This document shows positions 6,186 through 52,800 of a DNA stretch of 64,000 nucleotides, piece by piece; position 1 is the stretch's first letter, and every line of letters begins with the position of its first letter. Origin of the DNA: Tubiluchus corallicola (lineage: Eukaryota > Animalia > Priapulida). The DNA lies in NCBI GenBank assembly GCA_030141605.1, contig JAQGDQ010000197.1, positions 1 to 64,000 on the forward strand, in the 5' to 3' direction. The position numbers were made by a program, and so were the translations under genes. The notes beneath the pieces are model-generated. The model was given only the letters and a program-made list of their open reading frames with translations, did no database searches and had not been told where the DNA came from.

Positions 6186-6406
6186 TGTCAGGGTCACGGG
6201 TCACAGAAACATCAAACAAACGTTTAACGGCATAATTAAACCTGTTTATTAACCCTAACATTAAAATTGGAATCAAAAGAGCTGAAACTACTATCCTAAA
6301 ACGTGGTCCCGACATTAGACAAAGACATTTCCAATTAGTGGCGCACCAAGCTTTCAATGCGCAATGACAAGCACACATTTGCTTAATAACAGGGCTGGCC
6401 CTGACA
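6186..6406 (-). repeat. 3' LTR (221 bp) of the Gypsy element
   Basis: Terminal inverted repeats TGTCAGGGTCA / TGGCCCTGACA. 6347-6406 is identical to 10698-10757. Confidence 0.88.
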
Positions 6407-10697: not shown

Positions 10698-10757
10698 CAA
10701 GCTTTCAATGCGCAATGACAAGCACACATTTGCTTAATAACAGGGCTGGCCCTGACA
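10698..10757 (-). repeat. 60-bp remnant of the 5' LTR
   Basis: Exact 60-bp direct repeat of 6347-6406, followed by the TSD and joined almost directly to the gag zinc-knuckle region. Confidence 0.88.
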
Positions 10758-24300: not shown

Positions 24301-27300
24301 AATGGCGAATATGGTGAGATGTATCGCAAGAAATCCGTCACTGCCAGTGTTGTAGCTACAAAGAGCAAGTCTAGCAAAGACAAGATACACGTATAAAATT
24401 CCCTCTAAATTTATTTCTATTTAAGCAGAAACTTGTTTATATTATCATTTTAATATCGCTTTAACAAGTCATGTAGCTTTAGCATTGTCAAGAATTCATT
24501 TTATAATGTGAATTCACTTGATATGAGATGAACTTTTGAGTTTGAATCATAGATTTAAATGCCACACGTCGGCGAAAGATTGAACAATACATTGCGAGTG
24601 TGTTTGCGTACTGCTGTTTTTGCCTAACAAATGAACGCAGTTTTTACCTAAGTACATCTTACCCGTTGTTTGTCTTACAGCAGACTGTTGATTTTGTATA
24701 ACAAAATGGCACCCATTGTTGGCAATTTGTACAAGTCTAGCAGTTTCTTTGCTCCTGTGCAGCATGTCATTCTATGACCTGAAAGCACAATTTGTGCAAT
24801 GTGTGGTGTACATTTATTTATTTTATATCACGTTTATTTCAGGTTATGACAAGTACCATAGAACAGTAAATAAAAAGATTTCATTAAAATCATTATCTAA
24901 AAATGTTGCAAGACAAATAAAAATAAATATTTGCACAAAGAACAGAGGATTAGTAAGTTAAATATTTTAAAAAATTGTTAGTAAGTGTGTATTCCCAAGG
25001 GGCAAAAATTTTCGAAGTTAAAATGACATCAGTATTCAGAATAAAAATGTGTATGACTATGTTGTTTGAATTTAGAACGCGCTGACGAAGACTAAAGTAA
25101 CTTCTATTTATTATATACTAGTTATTCTAGCACATTACTTTCTGTGCTTTTTCCCTTCACAATGACAATGAATTATTGCTTAATTTAGTCAGATGAGGTA
25201 CAAGATTTGCATCGAAAACGCTGTCATTCGGAACAATTATTCCAGCACCGGCAAGCGCCATTTATCCGATGCACTAGTGCTCCGGGCACACCAGTGCATC
25301 CTTCGACTACTAGGAGACGTCGAACTGGGATTAAAGACCGTCCAAATCACAGTCTGAACCTGTGGAGTATCATGAAGAATTGCATCGGCAAAGAACTCTC
25401 AAAAATTCCCATGCCGGTAAGTGCGAATATACCTGCCTGATCTTTTATTTCTTTACTCGGTTGAGTTACTGTAACTTGATGTCTACTGCCTAGTGATGTC
25501 AACCATGTATTGACTTATCTAGAATTTCTAAGGTTTAAACTTGTAAGTCTGAAAATGTTCACTTAATGTTCACTCAATTAAATAATTGGCTGTAAATATG
25601 TTGTATTAAGTAACCACAAAATTTTATATGAAATTCTCATAACATTTTTACATGAAAAACGTGTGTATTGAACTCGCCTCATAAGTGTCAAAGGTGTGTG
25701 TGCAAACTAAATAATCTAAATTTTAAATGCGCTTGATCATCCTAATCACAACACAAAATTAAATTTGGAATTGAAAGAACATTTTAACTACTACTTGTTT
25801 TTTTAATTGATTTTGAAACTTCATTTGAGAGAAACTATAATGCAGTATTTATTTTTACCATGTTGCAGGGTGAGCTATGGTTTACTCATCTCACAATTTT
25901 GCCCATTCTGTTTCATTTGAATTGCCCATTTTTCAAACCATAAAAATCCAATTGTGGACTTTAGAAACTAATTCTATTCTTATATATCTAATGAGCAAGT
26001 TGATACCTCTGTGCACATGTATAATGAAAGAAATAGCTGGAAATAGCTTTTGTTTTTACATATGCAAATTCTTTCCTTTGGTTTTTTCACTGATTATTCA
26101 CGAAAATGTAGCATAAAAAAACTTGCAGTGTATTATTGTATTCCTGTAGGTTAATTTTAGTGAACCGCTTTCAATGCTGCAGCGATTGACAGAAGATTTT
26201 GAATACGCTTACCTACTAGATGGTGCTGCTCAATGTGATGATCCACATGAACAGATGGCGTATGTTGCAGCCTTCACTGTCTCATCATACTCAACGACAA
26301 CGAATAGAACTTACAAACCATTTAATCCATTATTAGGCGAAACTTACGAATGTGATAGACGTGATGATTTAGGCTGGCGTGCCTTTTCTGAACAGGTAAC
26401 GTTGTTTTTGTTGCTTGGTGTATTGCAATTGCACAGAATTGTGGGATTGATGATAATGCATGGCTAATTTGGTGAGAAACTAAGGGGAAATTCAAGTTAC
26501 ACTGTTATGGTTATTTGAATGACAGTAAGGTGTATTGCATGTAACATTAATCTACATGTCTTGGGATGACTTATGCTTGATTATACAGTAGGCGCTGCTT
26601 AATAGACTTACATTGGGTTGGAAGTGGTTTAACCAAATTATGCGATTGATATTATTAGCCAAAGGGTGTAGTATTACTAGTACAGAAGTTTGAGTCATTA
26701 TCACTCTTCAACTTAGTATGCACTGTAAAGGCTGTGAGAGCTTTAAATGTCAAGTCTTTATGCTTATGCTCTATATTTCAAAATTAATTCTGTGCTCTTA
26801 ATTGTTCTATGATCGTCTGCAATTTCGAAGAAAATGCATCTATGGCATAGCAATAACAGTTAATTGATTAAACCTTCTATGAGAAGCTGCAAGAGCTTAA
26901 AAAAGAAACTGCTATAGGCATGTGATTAAAAGTTTAGCTTCCATAAATTCTTGGGCAAGAAGGTTACTTGCATGGGATGAGCGGGTGACAGGTTCAAACC
27001 ATGTATTAGTGCATGATAAACGACCTGCTTACATACAAAATGGTACATAATATAATTGTTTCTACGTATGGTATAGTGTACAAAAGTGAAGTAACGGTGA
27101 AATAAAAGTAGTAAAAGCTCGGTCATACAAAAGTGTTTTATTTTAAGTACGTTAAGTGAAAATATTGAGGGAATTGTTTAGAATTATTTGATACAATTGT
27201 ATCAGTTTTATATACACCTGAATAGAAGCGGCACGTTCCAGACGTTTTAAGTCATTTCGGCGATTGATTCTGTTAACTGTGAGTCTAATAAATGGTGTCT

Positions 27301-30300
27301 ACTGTATTTCCTTTACCATGACGCATGTATTAAAATTCAATTCAGTCCACCCTTTATTTCAGCATTAATTATAAGTAACCTGTATTGTCTAACATGCATG
27401 GTATGGCCAAAAAGACCTGTGATATAATACTAAAATAAATTTTCTGCTTAGTTTTTTTTGAGCACTGCTTGTTCTGTTTAGTGTAAAATAGTAAAATAAT
27501 TTTACTAGTAACATACTAATTTGTACTAATATTTCTATTATTTTTATTTGCATGAAATGACTAACTGTGGACTAAAACCTGCCTGTTGCAAGCTTTGGTT
27601 GCCTGATATCTCCACACTGGGGATACTTTTGGTTTGGTACATTTAATTTATTAAAGCATGCTGTAATAACATGGTTACTGTTTAGTGTATTTGCCTGCTC
27701 AGTTCTAGTACTAACAAAGTAATATTAATTTCCTGCCACCTGTTTCTGATATTTTGACATATGTTGTTGATGCTGGTGGTATCAGAAGAATCTGAAACTA
27801 ACACAATTAAAAACTGTTCTATTTCTTAGATACGGCTGTGTTTATTTTCTAAAGTTGTTAAGCTAAAGTGACTCGGTACTATTCTAATATTCTTAACCCT
27901 CGGCAGCCGCAAATGGTTACTAATACACCCCGAACGTCTATATTGAGTTACAACTTTGTACCTTTGTACCATGAAGACATCACTACCTTTTTTCTTAGAA
28001 TCGTGTTTAAGTGGTTATCGGTCTACTATAAGGTGTCGTTTGACTTCTTGCATGTCATCCGCTTTGGTTGTAATATTGATTACAACTCAGTAAGGTGAGA
28101 TTTCACTCAAGCCCTGACATTGCTGTCATGTCGTATTTCTCTATTAACTGATATAGGCAAAAATGAAAAGTAAACAAATGGGAAATATTTTATTGTGCAT
28201 GTTAGCTGGCTTTAAAATGTACTGTTATTGTGAAAAAAATATCGTATGTTAGGCCATTAAGACTAAATTAAGTGATGTGACATACTTACTAATTAAAAAC
28301 ATGCCTTCTGACAATTTTCTTACAATTTTTAATGTGCAACCTTAATGCAGGTTTTGCTAATACAGCAAAGTAATCAAAGGTATGAAGTAGGTTTATTGAC
28401 CAACTGAACTAATATAGTAACATTTCTTCTATATTTATGCATGGAGAGAAATAATTCCATTGCTAGTATTCGCATGACTGTAGAACATTTGTAGGGGCTG
28501 AGAGTTAAGTATGTTATTTGCTGTTAATCTAAAGCACTTGTTTTTTCTTAAAGACCATCATTTCATGGCGTGGAATTCATTTTTCTTTTTGTGCAAAACG
28601 CTGCCAAAACAGGTTTGCTAACGTGTGTACATCAAACTAAACATGTGTAGGAAAATTTATTTTTTGTATTTTTTAACTCTTTATCTAAGAATTGATTTGC
28701 GACACAAAATTAATACATTGAAGGTACCGTTTTAACAATTCAAACCATTCTGTTTAAGCTGTTGTACAACACTTTTAATTATAAAGGATTTTTTGAACGA
28801 TCTTTTAACTTTGCTGAACATACTTTACCATTGGGTTTATTTACACGAGGGTGCCTCAGCCAGTTGAAAATGAATTATCTATGTATGAAGTAAATTATGA
28901 ACATATTTTAGGGAATTATTTTATAAAATATTATTGTGTTTTGTTGCTGTGTAAGCTTGAGTTTACTATGTACTGACGTTTTTCATAGAACAGCGTTAAT
29001 AAGTGTTATCTCAGAGTAAAAAAATTGTTAACAAAGTGGTTTTAAGTCGCTGATTAAAATCGGTCAATTTACCAAGTGATTTTGCTGTCAAACAGTTAGT
29101 TTCAGTTTATTTTACTGTGTGTTAAGGTCAGCCATCATCCTCCTGCAGCTGCAATGTACACTGAAGGAAGAGAGTGGATTTGTTACCAGGAGTTTACCAT
29201 GTCCAGCAAATTTCGTGGGAAATATCTCAACATTATCCCTTTGGGTGTAGCCCATTTAGAATTTCCTAGTTCAGGCAATCACTACACCTGGCGAAAGGTA
29301 TTGTAGAATGCTGTTTAATGCATCCTATTCAGCCTGTGCATAGAACTATGTTTCATTATTGTTTAGCAGGCGTCATGTCAACCAATCAGGCAACAAAGTG
29401 TACTGCAACAGGTAGGTTTTAGAGTTCAAAGACGTGCATTGTTGATGTTAATCTTTTAGGGCTCAAACTTGCTTTGCAAGCCTGTAACATGCTCTGCTTT
29501 TCGCATGGTATGCATTTCTCTAGGTATCGCATCACCCACCGGCTGCGGCACAGTTTGCCGAGGGACCCGGTTGGGTGATGAGTAAGGATTTCTGTGTAAA
29601 GAGCAAATTTCGTGGAAAGTATTTACAGGTTATGCCAATTGGGTTAAATCAACTTGAATTTACAAAGTCTGGACATGTATATACATGGAAAAAGGTAAAT
29701 TGGCAAGAGATGAGAAATCTTGAATGTTATGTGAGTTGTTTTATACAGCATGTTTGTTTTTTGTTGTTGTTGTTGTTATTGTGTTTTTCGATAAGATAGT
29801 TTGCTTTAGCTATTTAGCTGTTTGTACCAAGTAGTGAATTTTCTTAGTGAATTTTTTGTGTGATGTGAGTGCCGTATTAAGACAGTGGTTGGCATACTTT
29901 TTTATGCACTGCATAATTTTACATGATTTAAAAAGATCCACAGAGCAAATTCAGTAAAAACTGTTGTTGTGTCGGTTTGTGTAACATTTTATTCTTGTAC
30001 TGAATAAAACATTAGTGTTTCTATAAAGCTACATATATTGTGAACAGTGTTTAACAATTTACTATATATTATGGCTTATATATTTCATTAATTGATATGC
30101 AAACTCGTTTCAATAATTTGTTGCAAGAAACTAAAAGAAATTTGTTGAAACTGAAATCGAATGTAATTAGTATTATAAAAGTGACGTCGGACAATAATAC
30201 GGATTTTGCACCCCTTTTTTATTACTTTCCTTGTATTTTACATGGTTACTGTTTTAGGAGGTAAGTATTTATTGCACGTTTTTCTTTGCATGCTTCTTTT

Positions 30301-33300
30301 CTTACTGTTCTGCAGTCTGTCTGCTTTCAGTTTTAGTGAATCTAGTTTTTATTAAAATTGTTGCATTTTGTTTAAAGATAAAGTTTAGATTATAAAGTTG
30401 TGCAATTCATTCAAAAAATATTGGTCATGATTGCTTTAATTTGTTGTCACTTTGATGTTATACTTTGTCTTCATGTAATCTGTTGAAAGATTGCAATTGG
30501 TATGCCAGATGAAGGTGACTGAATAAATAGAACAATGCCTTTGCTTAAGTGGATGCTGGTAATTATTTTCACCTTAAGAATTCAATTTCTTCATCTCCAA
30601 TCTGTTTGGAAATTTTTCTGTTAGACAAAGGTTATTTGAGCCATCGCAGTTTCATCAAATCAAACATTTATGTAATTTGTATTGCTTTTTTAGCAGATGT
30701 GACTGTTAGAGCTTGCAACGTTAGTGATAGTCATTGGTATCATTGGACAGTAACTTGTACACATTTTAGTTTTGTGTAGAAAGTATTTCTTATGTTTTAG
30801 ACATAAATGTATTTGTGTGATAAGTTTATGGACCTTTTGAGCCTCATGAAAAACGATGTAAGTCTGTTTAACGTAAAGTATTTCAGATGAAAGTGAAGCT
30901 TGTAATTTTTTACAATTCAATTCAATACATTTATTTGTTTACCTATGGTTATGTCAAGCTATTTGCCACAAATTTCATTTTTAACTAATTTTTTTACATT
31001 GCACCTTTTGTAAATTTTCTACACAACATTTTTAATACTTGCGTGATTTTCATGATATTTGTTGCTGTGTAGGTGATGACAACAGTTCACAACATCATTG
31101 TTGGAAAATTGTGGATAGATCAATCAGGAGAGATGGACATTGTCAATCACAAGACAAAAGATGTTTGTCGGCTAAAATATTATGCTTATAGTTATTTTTC
31201 TCGTGAAGCACCGCGAAAGGTATTTCATCTTAGTTTTATATAGTCACTTTAACAAAAATTATGAAGTTATATTTATAAAAAGCAATTTTTGTTTTATAAA
31301 ATATCACAATTTAGGCATTGGTCACTTGGGCAATTATCACACGCAATTAGTACATGCGGTAATTGATAAGAAATAATGGTACTATTGCATGTTGAAGATG
31401 AGTAAGTGTTGAGGTTGAGTATAATACTAGTAAGTTCTGAATGCACAGTTCCATAAGAACAAACTAGCTATGAGTAGATAGTATGGAACTTATTTGCTGC
31501 ACAGCATTTATTTCTTATCAAAGCCTCTTTTTATTGAGCATGTTGGTAAGTTCATAGATACATCTTCACTATAATAAACTTTATTGTATTATATTATCAA
31601 ATTTATTAATGTGGTTCTGAAGAATTTCATTAATTTTGATTGTTACGCTCTCTAGGTTACGGGTGTTGTGACAGATGCAGCTGGTGGTGTACGATGGGTG
31701 TTATCCGGTCATTGGGATGATAAGATTGAAGGTGCTAGAGTCATTGAAAAAGCTGATAACAGTAGCAGCTTTACGTCTAAGCAGAGTAGTAAGCCCTTGT
31801 TAGAAACGTATGCACCAGTTTTACTATGGAAGCGACGTGTGCCTCCGTAAGTCATAATTTTGTTATTAGCGCTTTTCTGTCATTTTCTGGTGTTTCAAAC
31901 AATTTTTGGTCATTTTTGCCTCTCTGTTACTCTCGTAATCAACGTGGCATTGGTTAGATGGTTAGAATTAGTCATGATATACAGAGTGACTGACAGCCTA
32001 ATTCTAATATCTTCTATGTGAAATTTTATTTCTTAATTGGCCTAACTTTCTATGGGATTGTGTTAGGAGATGCTCTAGGAGTAATCTGATTAGTTATAGC
32101 AGATGATAATTCTGAATTTACTGGTTCATTTCTTTTTTGTACACAGACCTGATAACTCGCGATTCTATAACTTCACTCAGTTGACAGTTCAGCTGAATGA
32201 ACCAGAGGAAGGTGTAGCACCCACGGATTCACGAAAGCGACCAGATCAGCGAGCTATGGAGGAAGGTGATTGGGATGCTGCTAATGACGTATGCACTTTT
32301 ATCCTCTTTTACTCTAGTGCATATTTTGTGAAGTATTTGACTCAGTTTCATTCAAATGTCAGCGTGTAAATTTGTCTAGATGACAGTTTTAGTGGTTATT
32401 AATTGCATATTGTTTGATTCTATGTTGGCCTGTTTTGATAACATTGCGTAAAGTACAAATTAACACTTTGTTTAGGGGATTTAATTTTTTACGTTAACTC
32501 AGAGACCTTGTTTTTGGTAAATTTCTTTAGAGGCACTAGATGCTAGTGTAGTAACTGTACTCCTTAGAAAATGTATTACACAAGAGCAGGTCCTCCATTG
32601 GTAAATGATTTGATATTATAGCTAGGCAATGTGAATATCTAATATCTAGTAAAAAGCCTCTAGGTTATGTTGAAAATGTATGAGCAGTTAAACAGTATGT
32701 AACAAAATGATAGTATTTGCAATGAAGTTGTATTACAATTTTACAGTTGAAAGTGAAGCTGGAGGAGAAACAGAGACGTAAGAGGCGTGAGAGAGAACAG
32801 GAAACTGAGAATGCAGCTGCCCAGGGTATGTACACGTGTCCTGTGTCCTGTACCTGTACACGTGTCCTGTTTTCTACTTGTGAATGTATTGGCGAAACTG
32901 TCTAGCTTTTTGCCCCTAATTTTTCCATCTTAGTACTAACTAGTTGCATGCAGAAACGTAAGAGTTAATCTCTAGATTGTTCGCTAGCAAACTATGGTAC
33001 TAGCATTTCAAGTACTTTGTGAGGGATAAAATTTTAATAGTTTTTCTCCGGTCCTTTTGCAAGTTTTTTGCACCTTGAATTTAAAGATATTCATCGCTGC
33101 AGTTGCTGAATGTAGCTTTATCATTAATTTGATGCTTTCAGTTACAGTCGTGTATAATTTGCAGGACGGCCTTTTAAGCCTTACGAGCCGGTGTGGTTTC
33201 GAAAAGAACGTAACCCTTTGACAGGAAGTTTAATACATATGTACAAAGGGAACTATTGGGAATGTAAAGAGGTGCAAGACTGGAGCATGTGTCCAAAGTT

Positions 33301-33340
33301 ATTTACTCTCGAGGAGGCGGGACAATCAGCATCTCCATAG
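12370..33340 (+). CDS. OSBP: Oxysterol-binding protein (OSBP/ORP4 subfamily): PH domain, coiled coil, FFAT-like motif, ORD; 812 aa with one copy of exon 11
   Basis: Manually spliced GT-AG exons with consistent phases: 12370-12515, 17708-17831, 19174-19255, 20094-20213, 20642-20775, 22533-22722, 23238-23334, 24225-24390, 25189-25416, 26150-26395, [29127-29297 or 29524-29694], 31073-31219, 31656-31846, 32147-32288, 32747-32825, 33165-33340 (2439 nt). Motifs: [74 protein letters not shown]. Confidence 0.96.
13520..13925 (+). mobile_element. Highly degraded LINE ORF2 C-terminal fragment in OSBP intron 1
   Basis: Broken frames read ..[28 protein letters not shown], resembling a LINE C-terminal zinc knuckle. 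Many disruptions. Confidence 0.4.
14945..16225 (+). mobile_element. 5'-truncated CR1/L2-group (Crack-like) LINE with 3' UTR, in OSBP intron 1
   Basis: ORF 14958-15716 has [41 protein letters not shown] and HSYSTR. The 3' UTR has a stem-loop CAGGGCAGG(16101-16109)/CCTGCCCTG(16135-16143), AATAAA near 16203 and a short (CTATGT)-like tail. Confidence 0.85.
22161..22329. repeat. Degenerate MITE-like inverted repeat
   Basis: CGGTGAAACAGGAACTGAAC versus the reverse complement of GTCCAGTTTCTGCTTTACTG (about 15/20). Confidence 0.4.
22857..23007. repeat. Palindromic MITE-like dispersed repeat (second, partial copy at about 16564-16680)
   Basis: AGCCTTTTCACAGTTT...GTCAAAGGTTA...ATGTGGGTAAAGCAAA is shared by both loci. 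Internal inverted repeat GTCAAAGGTTAA..CCAGA / TCTGG..TTAACCTTTGAC. Confidence 0.6.
27572..27711 (+). promoter_or_regulatory. Upstream intronic element complementary to the 11a/11b intron (candidate selector)
   Basis: 27572-27590 pairs 19/19 (one G-U) with 29404-29422. 27598-27607 pairs 10/10 with 29385-29394. Further colinear blocks are 27692-27699/29365-29372 and 27701-27707/29341-29347. Confidence 0.75.
29127..29297 (+). CDS. OSBP: OSBP exon 11a (candidate mutually exclusive exon)
   Basis: AG|GTC...AAG|GT, 171 nt, phase 0/0. Translates as [57 protein letters not shown]. Confidence 0.93.
29336..29491 (+). promoter_or_regulatory. Inter-exon intronic element (candidate docking site for competing RNA duplexes)
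   Basis: Complementary to 27572-27711 upstream and, in shorter colinear blocks, to 30241-30335 downstream. Confidence 0.65.
29524..29694 (+). CDS. OSBP: OSBP exon 11b (candidate mutually exclusive exon)
   Basis: TAG|GTA...AAG|GTAAAT, 171 nt, phase 0/0. Translates as [57 protein letters not shown]. Confidence 0.9.
30241..30335 (+). promoter_or_regulatory. Downstream intronic element (candidate competing selector; contains a candidate 3-nt microexon at 30258-30260)
   Basis: Shares ACATGGTTACTGTTT(T)AG and TGYCTGCT..CAGTTYTAGT with the upstream element. Nested complementarity to 29341-29491. TTTTAG|GAG|GTAAGT. Confidence 0.5.
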
Positions 33341-37856: not shown

Positions 37857-40800
37857 CTATAATTCATCGTGATCCACGGAGGTGTCAGCATCTAAGAACC
37901 AGTCCTCATAAACCTGATATGGATCAACCATCCAGTGTTTGTGGAATGAAACTGGAAGCTGGTGACTTAGGTAATCTGCAGCATAATCATCTGGTCTTGC
38001 CTGAAAGCAAAACAAGTTTGAAAACTGAGACTGAACTTAGCAGAAATATTTATGCTACAACAAACAAAGAAAAACAAAACACATAGTGTACAATACTTAC
38101 ATATTTTTTGGCAATTTTCTATTACAATAATCATTAATTGTGAAATTTGCACAGATGTAGCAGAGGATAGCAACTTTTAACGGCATGTTCAGATTAAAGG
38201 AGTTTTCTCGCCAAGAAAACTTGCAGTAGGTTGTCGTGTAACACACAAGCACATTCAGAACAGAGTACATCAACTCACAGCAAGTTTTGAACATGTTTGC
38301 AAGCTACTTGGTAGTTTACTTGGCAAGAAAACTGCTAGTCTGAATGCATCCTAAAAATGCCTACTCCACATTGGATTTACCCAAAACTGCTAGTCTGAAT
38401 GCATCCTAAAAATGCCTACTCTACATTGGATTTACCCAAAACTGCTAGTCTGAATGCATCCTAAAAATGCCTACTCTACATTGGATTTACCCAAAACTGC
38501 TAGCCTGAATGCATCCTAAAATACCTACTCTACATTGGATTTAACCAAAACTGCAAGTCTGAATGCGTCCTAAAAATGCCTACTCTACATTGGATTTGCC
38601 CAAAACTGCTAGTCTGAATGCATCATAAAAATGCCTACTCCACATTGGATTTACCCAAAGCTGCTAGTCTGAATGCATCCTAAAAATGCCTACTCTACAT
38701 TGGATTTACCCAAAACTGCAAGTCTGAATGCATCCTAAAAATGCCTACTCTACATTGGATTTACCCAAAACTGCTAGTCTGAATGCATCCTAAAAATGCC
38801 TACTCTACATTGTATTTACCCAAAACTGCTAGTCTGAATGCATCCTAAAAATGCCTACTCTACATTGGATTTACCCATCAATGGCATATGAAATTAAGTC
38901 CCTGGTCATCTTACCTAACAAATGATGCAAAGCCATCGTGGTAGACCAGAAGCTTGTTTTTTTTGCTTCTTGATAAATATTTTGTGCCATCAAATTATGG
39001 GAGATTGCAACTCATTACTACAGCAATCACAGAAAACGGGACCTGGCAATTAACGCCAAAGTAAGCAGCATCATAAGAATGCAACTGATGAGGCACCTAA
39101 TAATACAACTGCATATCTACTGAGATCAATGAATATGCGTAGATGACGTGACAGTTTACCGATGTTAAGTATCAAATATTGGTAGTCATCAATGTCTTTA
39201 TAAAATACCAAAAAAGAGAAACATTTTAATGAACTTAGTCACAAAAAAGTTATTTTTTCAATAGCTGGACTCTACACATACAGTCATGCAAGACAAAAAT
39301 TAAGATAAGTGTCACTGAGCAGATGGTACTGACAAGTGAATAAAGATTTTTAAAAAATGGCCACCAAATAATAACTGCAATAGTATAAAATGCTGCTTTA
39401 CTGATGCTGTGTCATACTTCAAACCAAGCAAGTGACTTTGTCAAGACTCAGAATGACTCGGACATATTCACTGTACCCAAAGTAAATTTAATCAGTAGTG
39501 GCAAATATATTTTACGTCAACACTTTTGCCATGCTGTTTAACAATTTTTCCACTAAGCTAACCGAATATTAGATGTACAATTGTATGCACAATGCCATAA
39601 AAAAATTCCATATATTACAAAAGCTCATTCACCTGGTGGAAATAAGGGCTATGTGTAACAGGTATGGACAGTGATTTCAAGCACATGCCAATCGTCATAT
39701 CATCGGGAGTGTCCGGAGTTGGACATCCACATCGACCACTGTCCAGCATTCTCCTAACTGCTTCCATGCTAAACACCATACTGAAAATACATAACTTGCA
39801 CATGTCTAAGCTTTCAAGTTATAATGTAACTCATACAAAGTAAAAACCAATAGTTCGTTTTTGCTCTGAATTAGTGTGATATCTTTCTTGATATTTTTCA
39901 GAATTTTAAAATCAGTCACTTGCCAAACAGTAGGGCAACGAAGTGTTATATTATAATATTTATTGACTATCTGACACATTACAATTATACAATTCATTAC
40001 AAATATAATGCAATACATTACAAGTGGAACAAAAAAACTATACAGGCACAATCTTTGCTTATATATCAGCAAAGAGCTGCAAATGGCAACTACAAGTTTT
40101 AATGCACAGAAATTCTCGGTCATTACTATTACTAACAATAAATTGAAAAAAGCTCCATCGAGACCTAAAGCAAATGCCAAGTATCTGTGAGGTCACTTTG
40201 GATAACCAACAAATTTAAGTTTATTACAAATGAAATGTACAATTACTGAACATACAAAGCTATGAAACATGTTGTTAGGTAATGTCTTTGGTAGTCTCAT
40301 CTCTATTTGATTAATAACTAAAATTAAACAAAACGAATTAATTTTACACATGAAAGAGCCAGTCTCTAGGAATGAATATGGTGTTTGTTAAGAGCAGATG
40401 ATCGTTTCAACAACAACTGTCATTGTCAATGTTAGGAATCAAGCCAAAGCAGAAAAATATTTATGACACAACAATAAACCTATACAAATAATTAATACAC
40501 TAATGATTTGGTTTGGCTTGTTGTAGTGCCATAAATGTATTAACAATTTGGATTGATTTCTAGCATTGATAATGACAGTTGACGTCGAAGTGATCGTCTA
40601 TCTTAATAAACACCATGTTTATTAATTTTAATTAGTGATTATCGAAATGTATTAAGTATCCAAAAGTAATTGGTATTTTTTATGAAAACCGGCAGTAAAT
40701 TACCTGCTGCCACCAGTGAGGTAGTCATAACCAAATCCTGCTGTAGCTCCATATGCATAGCGTTCTCCTAATGCTACTGGTTCATGAGAATTATAACAAG

Positions 40801-46800: not shown

Positions 46801-49800
46801 CACGGAAAATTTAATAAGATAATAAAGGCAATGCCAGAAAACATACACAATCGTAGAAAATGTAAGACTATCTCAACTACAGAAGGCTTCATTAAAATAG
46901 CAAGTTTTCAGACTTTTTTTAAAGCTACAAAAATGTGGAAAAACTGCAAACTCGTATTCAACAAAGACACATTCAACCAATGAAGACGATTAAAATGTCA
47001 ATGTGATCAATACAAGACACTGGTCAGTAATGCATCAAGTTGCAACATTGCCTCACTTCTATAATGTGACCGTTAAAATTGTGGATATGTTTACATAGGA
47101 AATCAATACAAATCAGCAGTTGACAATCTCGGCAGCTGGACAGTTCACTTAGTATCAATACATTATGCAATAATACCACCATTTACTTGACTTGTTTCCT
47201 CAATTTACAGTCACTAATATACAAATGCAATGAAAGGGTTGAATCTGGGCGAGCAAACTCATTCACAATAGCTGCCAGTCTGAATGACTTGATAAATGAT
47301 AAAAGAATTACAGAAAGTGACATGGGAAAATCTATGGTACAAAGAGTTTGATAAAGAATCAAACTTGAAAGTGTATGGAAACAAACTGTTCAGTCCTGAC
47401 ATTTATAAATGGATTTGCTGCACACAAATCATTGTTAAAGTCTTTAGGAGCTCACACTGGAAAAAATACAAGAAAAATAAAGAATGGCGACAGAAACTGC
47501 ATATTAACCAGTAATGTACAGTTCAAAAACAGATGTCTAAAAATGTAAAACACCCAAACTTGTAAACAAAAATGAAATAACGTTCCCAAATTAGCTGGCA
47601 ACTAACGATATGATTAATTAGTTAATGAAATTGAAATAAACCTTAATGTAAAAAATGTATAATACAATTATGAAATCATAATAAACAATTACAATCTGAA
47701 ACAAGAAAAGATATATCTCTATGGTGTTTATGTAGACCACTAAAGGATAAAATCAGGATCAGTTGCACATGCAGTCACATTCCAGACATGTTTACTGAAA
47801 TGTTAATAACTTTTTTCTTTAACACAATGCTAAGAGATGTCAAGAAATGGTAGACTTGCTAGATTTAAAAGTCAGCAAAAGTAGATTACCACTTTTTATG
47901 CTGTGAATTCTAGGTTCAAAGAAGTTCATGAAGAAATAAGTTATTATACCATGCCTTTGAATGGCAATCATTCTCCATCCATTAATGGCCATCAGACATG
48001 TGAATGGTGATAGTACCTTATGTTAAAATATGTTCAAAATTAAATGCACTTTCTTAGGATTATCTCTGATTTATTAATTAGTTATAACAGTGATTGCCAG
48101 AATTTTTATAAACCATTGTGCTCTATCTCACCCATTGTGGATAAAGTAATGAGTTGGAAAAAAGAGACACTGAAAAATTGTGGTCTAGTCGAGAATATCA
48201 CTGATTAAATTAACTCCTTTGGTTTCTTCTGCATAAGGGTTTACTTAGTTACTCTACAGAATTTACTCAGAATCACTTCTTGACACACAGCACATAATAA
48301 CATTTGAAAGAAGTACCTCAAACCAGCAACTCGTTTTCTTAATAACATGTTCTCACAGTAGCCATCAAAAATTTAATTTTCAAGCAAAAGTAGTTTCTTA
48401 TATCACACTGCACAGTAAAAATTAAAATATTTTAGTTCAATCATTAACAGCTTTTTCAATAGCAATACTTACTGCACTGACATTTAAAAATGATTTGCTT
48501 GGATGTATTTTAACATATCTTTATTAGCAAATTTCAAGACAGCCTTTGCAATATAATTTTTATGAAAAAATGTTATATGTAAACAAGAATGAACAGTTGA
48601 AATGTTCCTGTATCTCAGTTTCTCCCACAGGAATAGCATGTAATATTTATCTGTTTAATATAATATGATATGATGTGATGTGATGCGATGCGATGCGATG
48701 TGATGAGATGCAATGCAATACAATACAATACAATATAATTTAATTTAATAAATAATATATCTATGCATAACAAGTCATGTTGAATTGCGTGAACTGCTTC
48801 AACAAATAAAATGTAATACAATCATATACACAACTCCACTAGGTATCAATAGTCACATTCGTAAAAGAAAACTAGATGCGATTTCCTAGATGTGATACTC
48901 TAATTTAGATTAAAACTTTGCAAAGACGTTTTTTTTGGAAAAAATCCCTTTCGTAAAATGTCAATACCAAAAAAAGTTTGGCCAAATTAAATATAGAATA
49001 TGATTGCTAATGGACTATTTCAGAAAGAAATGTAAAACAGAATAAAAATTAGAAAGTATAAAATATGAAAATGTGATAATGATATAACAAAAATCATGTT
49101 TGGATCATAATCTCTCGATTTACATTATTGAGAAAAATCACATTTATTTATGAATTCGTTTACCAGAGGATTATCATTGGTGAAGCCCTCCATCACAGTG
49201 CCTCAAAATGAAGCCACCGCTATCTCTCGATAGATGCAGTATTTGTTTGCTTTCCGCCACTTATCCCGTCCAAGAGATTTCCTCAGTTTGGACACTAGAA
49301 GCCATTAGGACATCTGACTGGACAGCCGAGTCCATTAACAAATCACTGGTGAAACTCAATTCCATGCTCTGCACTTGTTCCAAATGTACACTGAAGTTTG
49401 AAGTGCAGATGTTCGGTACATCACAAAACCACCACTAAGTACATTTCCATCAGCATGTTATTAATGATCATCACAAAGTTTGTGGCTCACTATTATTTAA
49501 TTATTTTATTTATTTATTTTATTCACACCCAATAGTAAAATAATAAAAACAATAAATATAAAACATGTTTGCAAAAAGCATACAAATACAATATTAACAA
49601 GAGTGTTGTTAAGACACAAAGAGATGAACTACTTATATGTGTCTATTATGAACAAGAAATTTATGCAAATCATCTCATTAGTTCATTAATTAATTATGAA
49701 TGTGATTGCCATAATTTCTATAAACCATTGCAATTTATTTTACCAATTATTACCCATTGTGTGCATCTCATTACCCAGTAATAAACAGCAATAGTTTATA

Positions 49801-52800
49801 AAAATTCTGGCAATCACAGTCATAATTAATTAATAATATTGTTAGTTGCCAGCTAATTTGGGAAAGTATTTTTTAGTTATATCCCATTAGTTTGTCAAAG
49901 TTATATGGCTAGAGAAATGTTATAGTTTTTCTAAGTGCACGAACATTACAAAATTTATAAATTTTTTATCAATATGCATGCGAAATTCAGAGGTTTTCTT
50001 CTATATTGCATTTACACATATTATGAATGCTGGGTCTCTTAAGTTAATCATTGTACCACAGAAAACACTGATTTCAGACAGTTGAATGTTAACATTTTTC
50101 AGCAAGCCAAAACGTAAATTTCACGGTCAAATATGAAAGGGATTTGCATTAAAAAAATGTAGTTTTAAATGTTCAATTTGTTGTCTGTTTTTGAAAACTA
50201 AGCTTTCTGGCCATGAAAGCCATTCTGTTACATAACACAAATAAAATTCAGCAAAATAAATTGCACACGTTTACATTATTATTTTGTTTGTAGTTTATAG
50301 TTGTCTATTATGACCGACAAAACTTTCGTGACGTCAAGAGCCACGAATCCATAATGTATGGAAGCTCGTAAACAATCAACCAAGCGTCTGCAAGCCTGAA
50401 GATAATAAAATGAACCATTTCATCAAAGCATCTTCAACTTAAACAGAAAATATATGAGGGGAGAACACAAAGCAAAATGGGCTGTCCTGTCGTAAAGTGA
50501 CGCCTAATTTGCCGTATCGTCACACAAATCTATATAAAATAACCAGCATATTTCCCAATTTACTGGACAGCTAAAAGACTGTCATAACTTAGGCAGAATG
50601 TTACAACTTGTTTCACAAGAGTCAGTTTGTACTATACTAAATTTTTAAGACTATGAAATTATTCTTCGCTTGAACAACCAGTTTTAACTAACTAGATGGT
50701 ACACACACAGTGCTTCGCTATAATAGTAAATAACACTGCTTTTGTGAGTTTAGGTTACAGTGAGACTAAAGCTGCGGAAATGAATGTTAAGAATTAATAA
50801 ATATGCTACCGAAAAATGCTATTATATGCTAAAATGGACGTATGCAAGAGAATGTGAAAAGAAAAACAGTAAATATTTAATTTTTGTTCAGAAAAGGATG
50901 ACAAAAGGATTTTTATTTAGCCCAGTGGAGAATAATCTCTGCAAGGAGTAATGTAAGGTGACTGGCTTTAAAACAAGGACAATAAGAAGTAAATCACCTG
51001 CTGTTCACATAATCTTAATGGGTTAAATTAATTAATGGACTGACAGTGAACTGGTCCTCAGGGGCATAGCCAGGTTCTAAAGTTAGGAGGAGCAAGCATG
51101 TAAAAAAGGTGCCATTGATATATACCAAACAATTTCTAACGCATTGATTATTCAGTTTAATCTCGTGTTTAAACTCAAAACATGAGGAAGGCACAGTTTT
51201 AAAGGAAGTCCATAATTGTTATTTCGTGTTTAAAAATAAAACATAATGAAAAGTTTTATAGCTCATAAATCTCAAAACATAATAAAAACGTGTATTGTTT
51301 AAATTTTAAACCCATAATGCAAACAAAATGAATGAGTTTTGGTGCTGTTGAAAAGGCGCCAATTTTGAAAAATGTGCCCGGCAGAGTGGTTGCTCCTCTT
51401 GCCAGGGCCTATTTCAAGGGGGGGAAGTGAGGATACTTCCCGGGGCTTCACCCTCCAGGAGGGCCTCGCGCCAAGGTAATATTTTTTTGCTTTATGTGAA
51501 CATATTGCCTCTTCTCTCCCTCTCTCTCTCTTGCTGAACGTGCACCGTTTGCCAGTATTGACAAGTATTAAGGACTGGTCTTGAGAATAAAGCAGTTTTT
51601 CTTTCAATTGTTCTTTCCTTTAACAACTGTATAATTTCATATTTTCTCTTCGAAAATGCTTCTCCGGCATTCTAGCAGTTCAAAAATTTTCTGGGCGCCA
51701 AGCATGGTAGCGCCTGCCCTGCGGCACTTACCCCCCCCCCCCCCCCGATGGGGCCGCACGCGCCCCCACTTCCCCGGGCCTCGCCTAGGCTGAAATAGGC
51801 CCTGCCTCTTGCTCCCTTATTAGTTATGCCATTCCTAGTCCTGAACAAGTCTAAAAACCTGTTCATAGTCAGAACACCCTAGGAACACTAAAAGTTAGTC
51901 TATTAAATATTTTTCCAGATTGCCCACACAGTGTGTATTCTTGATAATATTGCCCATAATAGGTAACTATCCCTTTTGCTTAATGTGATAATAATAATAA
52001 TAATAACCTTTTATCCACAGAAAAATTTTGTTAGGACAATTCAAGACACAAACTTTGGTGCAAATTTTTGAAAGAGAAAGGAACAGAGGTTAACGCAAAA
52101 TCAATTAAATTGCAGAAATAATATAAATGATATTATTAAAAAATATGATAATTTCTAAATTAAATACTAAAAAAGTGAGATACCTTTTAAGCAAAGAAGA
52201 ACTGATCAGAAAACCAGCAGCTGGATCCGGATACTCAAAACTTGAGGGATGTTCATGAAAAGCAAAGTGATGTATTATGGTAGGTTCCCTATCCCGTAAG
52301 CTTCTTCCCAAGAATAATCTCTTGAAAATGAAAATGATAATTTTGACATACATTTGCATTCTTTAACTACTTTACTTTACATTTGTACGGCTTATCAATA
52401 TTAGCCCAAAATTAACAAATAAACAAATCAGAAAAAACAGAGGACTGGATAGAATTTAATGGTATGACAGTTGTACCTTATTAGCATTGTATCGCGTCAA
52501 AAGTTGCAATAATCCTGCTAAATTCACACGAGTTTCTTCTTCACAGAAAAACACATAAGATGAATTTTTCATAAATGTCTTGCTAAGATTAGATAAAATT
52601 GGTAATATGGTCCAACTCCCTGTTTGTGGCCATTGTTCATGTAGAAACAATATATGAGGGGAAACCTAAAATGAAAAATGTAATTATTAATAAGGAATTG
52701 GTCTAATTAGAAAAAGTGAATACAAAAGTACAAATTATTTTAGTATCATAAAAATTAGTGATTAATAGAGCGGCAGAAATTTAAGGACGATGATTCAAAA

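Follow-up and report, generated by a model that had tools for sequence, protein, structure and literature searches.

Proof that structure drives the exclusive choice between duplicated exons exists for a handful of insect genes and for human ATE1. According to the accessible part of the ATE1 report, an element between exons 7a and 7b (R3) is complementary both to an element before 7a (R1) and to one before 7b (R4); breaking R1R3 raises the use of 7a, breaking R3R4 raises the use of 7b, breaking R3 leads to double inclusion, and a triple change restores the wild type (PMC7797038). The same text describes the homologue of exon 7b as absent from invertebrates (PMC7797038). In exon 4 of Drosophila serpent, as far as the consulted sections of that study go, it takes no more than the upstream stem to bring about inclusion of the second exon (PMC4691838). 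The mechanism class is therefore already established, and the oxysterol-binding protein (OSBP) locus described here would add a variant layout to it. We found a duplicated exon pair spanned in part by a long-range intronic RNA duplex, one arm of which (S) appears to have a second partner over the acceptor of the downstream copy. This duplex quite probably affects exon choice in some way, and its comparison with the systems above is taken up at the end.

An OSBP exon present in two tandem copies

The plus strand of the 64,000-nt window, by which we mean the whole stretch of DNA analyzed, carries an OSBP gene with exons from ~12.4 to 33.3 kb. The features considered here are collected in Table 1, in which the exon numbers (10, 11a, 11b and 12) are those of the original prediction for this DNA. 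All four exons score above the Pfam cut-off for PF01237, and by the presence of both the ORD domain and the EQVSHHPP motif the gene is assigned to the OSBP/ORD lipid-transfer family. The EQVSHHPP motif straddles the junction of exons 10 and 11, so that the exon 11 segment opens with its second half. Its tandem histidines, which bind the PI4P head group (PMC8264513), are present in both 11a and 11b. In the structure of human OSBP, exon 11a corresponds by alignment to residues 117-174 of chain 7v62_A. In a 35-row tree built from the C-terminal region, the protein is sister to a Priapulus caudatus OSBP with a support of 99/91, and the two are 80% identical over 334 columns; judged from this single gene, the animal is likely a priapulid worm or closely related to one.

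Table 1. Coordinates of exons, pairing elements and neighboring features in the window
Feature	Position	Strand	Remarks
Exon 10, upstream constitutive	26150..26395	+	PF01237 21-102; AG/GT ends; ends directly 5' of the HHPP motif
High-copy repeat block between exon 10 and U	26448..27317 (approximate, depth bins)		X2 depth 7,950-21,295 vs 184
ACTAAY/TGCATG cluster beside U	27515..27716	+	ACTAAY 27515, 27525, 27560, 27710; TGCATG 27549
Upstream arm U, core	27572..27607	+	helix 1 27572-27590, helix 2 27592-27607; putative analogue of ATE1 R1
Upstream arm U, remainder	27608..27711	+	predicted small hairpin and three short blocks extending the duplex; not above chance
Exon 11a, consensus-like copy, 57 codons	29127..29297	+	PF01237 103-159; 88% identical to Priapulus OSBP
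Switch element S	29336..29427	+	part of the intron (226 nt) between 11a and 11b; two complementary partners, U and the 11b acceptor half; putative analogue of ATE1 R3
Acceptor half of the inter-exon intron	29459..29523	+	candidate branch point 29482-29488, pyrimidine tract, AG; putative analogue of ATE1 R4
Exon 11b, derived copy, 57 codons	29524..29694	+	PF01237 103-159; 56% amino-acid identity to 11a; open frame
Exon 12, downstream constitutive	31073..31219	+	PF01237 161-204

Exons 11a and 11b are 171 nt each and in phase 0, have their own AG/GT splice ends and both preserve the frame; they are separated by an intron of 226 nt, the flanking introns are GT-AG, and by their Pfam matches the two exons are tandem copies of one segment. 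Their nucleotide identity is 57%, 32 of the 57 residues are kept, and 13 of these 32 common residues are encoded by identical codons. Such divergence points to an old duplication, and each copy has the look of a coding exon. Since the copies are old, the near-perfect complementarity in the surrounding introns would have to be either maintained or recent. Exon 11b departs at positions 21, 22, 24, 25, 42 and 43 from residues that are kept in 82-99% of 88 homologous segments. Of 175 proteins retrieved, none gives 11b a better score than 11a, and an 11b-like protein was not found in three homologue searches.

Two copies of the same segment are present in two gene models among the 120 proteins of the first search, those of Spodoptera exigua and Magallana gigas. 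In Spodoptera frugiperda the segment in its entirety is the sole difference between RefSeq isoforms X1 and X2, and in Magallana gigas the isoforms differ solely in its first 39 residues; one-or-other use of the copies in these moth and oyster homologues is a matter of annotation. The second copies of these isoforms are as divergent as 11b. Among 80 metagenome loci, many of which are transcripts or short contigs, no second tandem copy was seen. Since the ends of the duplicated unit differ among worm, moth and oyster, a spacing change near the first tryptophan is common to both moth copies, and the three derived copies do not cluster (in a weak 57-column tree with 3 well-supported branches of 18), the three duplications likely had independent origins. 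Convergent tandem-exon duplication in orthologous genes is well documented (PMC9741552), and the recurrence in OSBP would therefore be a new case of a known pattern. A literature search that covered few subscription papers returned no relevant paper on OSBP with mutually exclusive or duplicated exons, and OSBP was absent from the searched portion of a supplement on human tandem-exon substitutions (PMC8373072). The duplication of this exon in three phyla points to candidate isoforms of a central sterol/PI4P exchanger.

The inter-exon element S and its pairing partners

The original prediction held that an arm in the intron upstream of 11a (U) pairs with S and loops out 11a. Most of its helices were recovered exactly: in helix 1, 27572-27590 pairs with 29404-29422 at 19 of 19 positions with one G-U, and helix 2, composed of 27593-27596/29395-29398 (4/4) and 27598-27607/29385-29394 (10/10), amounts to 14 bp with a bulge. 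Two of the inner blocks, 27692-27699/29365-29372 (8/8, one G-U) and 27701-27707/29341-29347 (7/7), pair as described, and the local hairpin at 27607-27625 is part of the predicted fold with a mean pair probability of 0.89. The remaining block, placed at 27629-27642/29375-29384, does not form as a straight helix, although 6 bp at 27629-27634/29380-29385 are seen in the fold.

When the whole upstream intron was compared with the inter-exon intron, the stacking energy of helix 1 (-35.4 kcal/mol) was reached by none of 1000 shuffles; by length alone, 19 bp were reached in 18 of 1000. Helix 1 ranks fourth among 540 comparable window tiles, the three above it belonging to a repeat cluster at 47.5-49.9 kb, and helix 2, tested without helix 1, was matched by 0/300 shuffles. 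When 1594 sense tiles of the window were compared as partners of the inter-exon core, the one at 27561 came first (-62.1; next -43.1; mean -23.1, sd 6.1), and for the upstream arm the best of 2552 window tiles is the one at 29351 (-59.4; next -53.4). The arms are thus mutual best partners across the whole window. The comparison with shuffled duplexes that had been proposed along with the prediction came out in its favor by net gain (-33.2; 0/60 shuffles), but 3 of 60 shuffles reached its raw duplex energy. The three inner blocks, counted as part of the duplex in the prediction, are jointly at chance level (44/300 by net gain, 80/300 by duplex energy). The duplex is real, but the part of it that exceeds chance is confined to the two main helices, one of 19 bp and one of 14 bp that contains a bulge. 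Rfam covariance models gave no match at E <= 1 in 26396-31072.

Folded without U, S is predicted to pair in eight collinear blocks with 29459-29515, within the acceptor half of its own intron. The energy of this pairing is -45.8 kcal/mol vs -32.9 +/- 4.2 kcal/mol in shuffles, 7 of 1000 of which reach it, and the fraction of the acceptor half paired to S is 0.70 vs 0.19 +/- 0.13 with S shuffled (0/150). In the same geometry at the nine acceptors of the gene, z is -3.2 for 11b (1/300) and between -1.3 and +1.2 for the other eight, for a pairing that was found post hoc and with control windows set from the 11b case. The stretches of S used by both partners are 29341-51, 29365-71, 29386-93 and 29404-19. 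In the presence of U, S is predicted to change partner, with pair probabilities of 0.86-0.98 for helices 1 and 2, and the predicted accessibility increases from 0.28 to 0.62 for the branch point, whose position was judged by eye, and from 0.18 to 0.37 for the pyrimidine tract. U and the 11b acceptor half match at 20 of 25 columns, a level that, in a set of 2553 tiles, is shared by those ranking from 9 to at least 14. The 226-nt intron as a whole folds no better than its shuffles (z -0.77, 38/200); the value for 29380-29500 is likewise -0.77, and only the trimmed stretch 29400-29482 reaches a z of -2.54 (5/200). Under local folding the accessibility of the 11b acceptor is 0.29, which is not the lowest of the gene's nine (0.27-0.60).

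For exon 11a, no pairing that masks the acceptor was found (143/150 shuffles do as well), and U, which ends 1.4 kb before the exon start at 29127, does not overlap this acceptor. Silencing of 11a must therefore come from looping alone. Several other arrangements were tried and rejected. A selector before 11a was sought as a partner of U in 27740-29126, where 26 of 40 shuffles were as good. A docking site downstream of 11b was sought as well, the best perfect helix being of 11 bp (-18.1), with 29/40 shuffles for the S core and 6/40 for the acceptor half. Pairing of the 5' half of the inter-exon intron with the downstream intron went from 0/40 to 29/200 on re-testing with both sides shuffled. 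No copy resembling S was found before 11a (134/200). A further candidate, less favored but not rejected, is a pairing of U with 30706-30720 or 30741-30755 that would enclose both exons in the loop; 2/60 shuffles did as well in one test and 10/150 in another, and in a joint fold it loses to U-S.

A putative two-state switch and its alternatives

The two partners of S suggest an either-or RNA switch that would admit one exon only, a reading to which we give about an even chance. In the first predicted state, U-S pairing would enclose 11a in a 1.8-kb loop and free the branch point and pyrimidine tract of 11b, and exon 10 would join 11b. Looping would shorten the distance from exon 10 to 11b from 3.13 kb to about 1.28 kb; the earlier statement that exon 10 is brought close to 11b was overstated, as ~1.18 kb and 0.10 kb remain outside the duplex, although ~870 nt of this is high-copy repeat. 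In the second predicted state, S would fold onto the acceptor half of its own intron, hide the 11b acceptor and leave 11a to be used. Once exon 10 had been joined to 11a, U would be lost with the lariat, which would fix the second state and prevent inclusion of 11a and 11b together. As a device for exclusivity, the duplex originally proposed thus fits the 11b state, while the 11a state would need the second partner of S over the 11b acceptor.

The core of the prediction, two frame-preserving duplicated exons of which 11a is spanned by a significant single-copy duplex, was borne out. So was its argument that neither nonsense-mediated decay (NMD) nor a short intron explains exclusivity, and a U12/spliceosome mismatch does not explain it either. 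The frame is kept in both exons, the introns are GT-AG, and between the 11a donor and the candidate branch point there are ~185 nt, against a steric limit of roughly 50-60 nt.

The predicted energies are -120.2 kcal/mol for the U-S state and -94.1 kcal/mol for the local state; after subtraction of ~3.7 for the larger loop, a rough cost, the first state is ahead by ~22. The predicted energetics therefore favor 11b by a wide margin, though 11a is the consensus-like copy, and the use of 11a would need folding kinetics or proteins covering U. Kinetics might suffice in that the local partner would be transcribed just 30-100 nt after S. Alternatively, candidate proteins on the ACTAAY/TGCATG motifs flanking U might cover this arm.

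It is conceivable, though unlikely, that the loop-out works in one direction only, such that U-S promotes 11b by hiding 11a, the 11a state follows from splice-site strength or splicing proteins, and the pairing of S with the acceptor half is incidental. The U-S duplex is statistically far stronger than the local pairing, and in the consulted text on serpent an upstream stem alone suffices for inclusion of the second exon (PMC4691838). However, the S-acceptor complementarity, with its eight collinear blocks, is reached by few shuffles (7/1000) and is unique among the nine acceptors, and a single duplex would leave double inclusion of 11a and 11b unaccounted for.

More doubtful still is an absence of function, in which case the complementarity would be a short inverted duplication or a decayed mobile-element remnant in the DNA and the exons would be chosen by other means. 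Several repeats have inserted into the intron, and stronger DNA inverted repeats exist elsewhere in the window. Mismatches compatible with G-U pairing on the sense strand had been put forward as a sign of selection on RNA; this argument proved weak, with 4 G-U among 61 pairs and energies of -90.3 (sense) vs -77.0 kcal/mol (antisense) in a region whose composition is already skewed to G and T. The slight bias and the chance-level inner blocks speak for a DNA accident. Against such an origin stands the copy number of the arms. In run X2 the depth is 183.9 over 27492-28013 and 28536-30275, while neighboring stretches range from hundreds to >20,000, and further high-copy repeats are seen at 28188-28535 and 30450-30623. 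With repeat status judged from contig depth at 80% likeness, both arms are at single-contig depth, which rules out membership in a high-copy family at >=80% identity, the possibility that would have undone the original prediction. Moreover, the arm within the short intron of 226 nt between the exons has another partner, which covers a splice site, and the other arm is flanked by the densest ACTAAY/TGCATG cluster of the window (joint-highest count).

Matches in further sequencing runs cover parts of the locus. In a second sample (X4), one contig agrees with 27378-27727, the upstream arm included, at every position (0 differences) and with 29386-29671 at all but one (1 difference). In a relative (X5), single contigs match 27663-27760 with 16 differences in 98 letters (depth 3.6) and 28705-28791 with 15 differences in 87 letters, which gives a hint of conservation. 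A spliced X5 contig on exons 13-16 shows 51 differences in 588 letters; no X5 piece falls on 11a and none is listed on 11b or 12, and X6 covers 33255-33340 only. Among the matches listed in 26100-31300 for runs X1-X4 there is no splice joint. These observations bear neither way on splicing.

The ACTAAY/TGCATG cluster adjoins the outer end of helix 1; its count of five within 250 nt is equalled but nowhere exceeded in the window, whichever strand is taken. We take ACTAAY to be candidate STAR/QKI sites and TGCATG a candidate RBFOX site; ACTAAY also resembles the branch-point consensus. The duplex might accordingly be an RNA bridge whose main role is to carry this cluster to ~100 nt from the 11b acceptor, just downstream of 11a, with the bound proteins choosing the exon. 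Distal Rbfox sites are delivered in this manner in ENAH and KIF21A, as described in the available part of that work (PMC6027157). As the principal function this is distinctly improbable, since the motifs are few and candidate sites, ACTAAY could be read as branch points, and the S-acceptor pairing would be left unaccounted for. As a regulatory layer on top of the two-state switch, such a bridge would be compatible with it.

That 11b is silent and never enters the mRNA, with the structures merely suppressing it, agrees with its changes at widely conserved residues and with the lack of any retrieved protein that scores better for 11b, yet is hardly credible given the open frame, the intact AG/GT ends, the equal length, the 32 of 57 residues kept while third positions drifted, the equally divergent second copies annotated as isoforms in moth and oyster, and a long duplex that would promote 11b, not suppress it.

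The two-state switch can be extended to a wider reading, which we offer tentatively and hold to be more doubtful than the switch itself. In at least three protostome phyla, represented by this worm, the moths and the oysters, separate duplications would have affected the OSBP exon with the lipid-binding motif, the derived copy each time altering the conserved segment after the tandem histidines; in the worm, a self-locking RNA switch would make the choice, and splicing proteins on the distant arm would set the lipid-transfer variant of a tissue.

Comparison with known systems

With the usual members of the OSBP/ORD family (Pfam PF01237) the locus differs in that the segment is present twice in tandem. 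Its long-range pairing resembles that of Dscam1 exon 6, 14-3-3zeta, Mhc and MRP1, in which, according to the consulted part of the report, an intronic duplex loops out the upstream variant exon of a tandem cluster (PMC6071210). The original prediction had drawn its analogy from the docking-selector pairings of Dscam, 14-3-3 and Mhc, and this analogy fails, there being no second selector between U and 11a (26/40 shuffles as good). In clusters of the Dscam1 type, again as far as that text describes them, there is one docking site and a selector for each exon, whereas here the shared element would be the inter-exon S (PMC6071210).

The proximity of a long-range duplex to candidate splicing-factor motifs is reminiscent of the Rbfox RNA bridges in ENAH and KIF21A. 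Unlike the OSBP pair, the exons in those two genes are described in the accessible text as cassette exons, not duplicated pairs, and the motifs here are candidates only (PMC6027157).

Another parallel is offered by serpent, in which, in the part of the study available, a stem between the upstream intron and an inter-exon element likewise spans the first exon, to the advantage of the second (PMC4691838). The second stem described there, from the inter-exon region to the downstream intron, has no counterpart that beats chance at the OSBP locus.

The closest parallel is ATE1. In both genes the exons are duplicated and the elements follow in the same order, S corresponding to R3, U to R1 and 29459-29515 to R4; in ATE1 the two partners of the shared element resemble each other, as they may do here. 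The genes are unrelated, and the ATE1 structures were proven by compensatory mutation, whereas the OSBP locus is predicted from sequence alone. A downstream pairing like R2-R5 is not seen here (29/200). In the consulted sections on ATE1, R1 overlaps the splice site of 7a; U, at 1.4-1.55 kb before 11a, would have to rely on looping instead. If the two-state switch holds true, the ATE1 layout would have an independent counterpart in a distant animal, implying that the design recurs, and an upstream partner could act from 1.5 kb without covering a splice site, through a loop. The locus is compact, with two exons and three elements within about 2 kb, and can thus be tested directly in a minigene. 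Taken together, these likenesses and differences suggest that the OSBP locus is likely an ATE1-like arrangement with a serpent-like loop-out arm.

Possible additional pairings of the upstream arm

The core (27572-27607) of the upstream arm, which lies in the OSBP intron between exons 10 and 11a, has a possible alternative partner in the intron after exon 11b: 27584-27598 matches 30706-30720 as a 15-bp helix; 2 of 60 shuffles did as well. If formed, this helix would loop out 11a and 11b together.

Another part of the upstream arm, 27669-27683, recurs as an exact 15-base repeat at 30240-30254, directly before the possible microexon listed in the table. Three matches to this pattern were found at no more than two mismatches against 0.44 expected, for a pattern that was picked after the fact. 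The segment 30741-30758 is complementary to each of the two copies (-21.8 kcal/mol for 27669-27683 and -16.8 kcal/mol for 30240-30254), and the best partner was equalled by 10 of 150 shuffles. The two copies and 30741-30758 perhaps make up a second, weaker module.

The splice signals at 30258-30260 point to a possible microexon, and such signals could arise by chance. An extra glutamate at this position was visible in none of the 120 homologues listed.

Intron composition and repeats in the window

Without the high-copy insertion at 26448-27317, the distance from exon 10 to the upstream arm would be about 300 nt. The single-copy intron stretch 28705-28791 is matched by one contig of a related animal, with 15 differences in 87 positions, and may represent a further conserved element before 11a.

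Elsewhere in the window, inverted and direct repeats of 48-55 bases (79-92% identity) cluster at 47575-49872 and resemble remnants of a miniature inverted-repeat element.

Repeats and the candidate microexon in the window
Feature	Position	Strand	Details
High-copy repeat insertions	26448-27317, 28188-28535, 30450-30623		introns flanking the 11a/11b pair; from contig depth
Possible 3-nt microexon	30258-30260	+	single glutamate codon flanked by an AG acceptor and a consensus donor; in the intron that separates 11b from exon 12
55-base tandem array	38273-38960		
99-base inverted repeat	40396-40599		6-base loop
Exact 60-base direct repeat	6347-6406 and 10698-10757		4.35 kb apart

The exon 11 segment in other animals

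Priapulus caudatus has two OSBP-like proteins (P0002 and P0004) on separate scaffolds, and in a short exon tree 11b joins the second of them with support of 97/95, on a long branch. Among the metagenome loci L022-L076, an intron splits the exon 11 segment, of which 11a and 11b are tandem copies, near codon 20, 40 or 50, depending on the animal. These varied intron positions fit the differing duplicated units of moth, oyster and the window.
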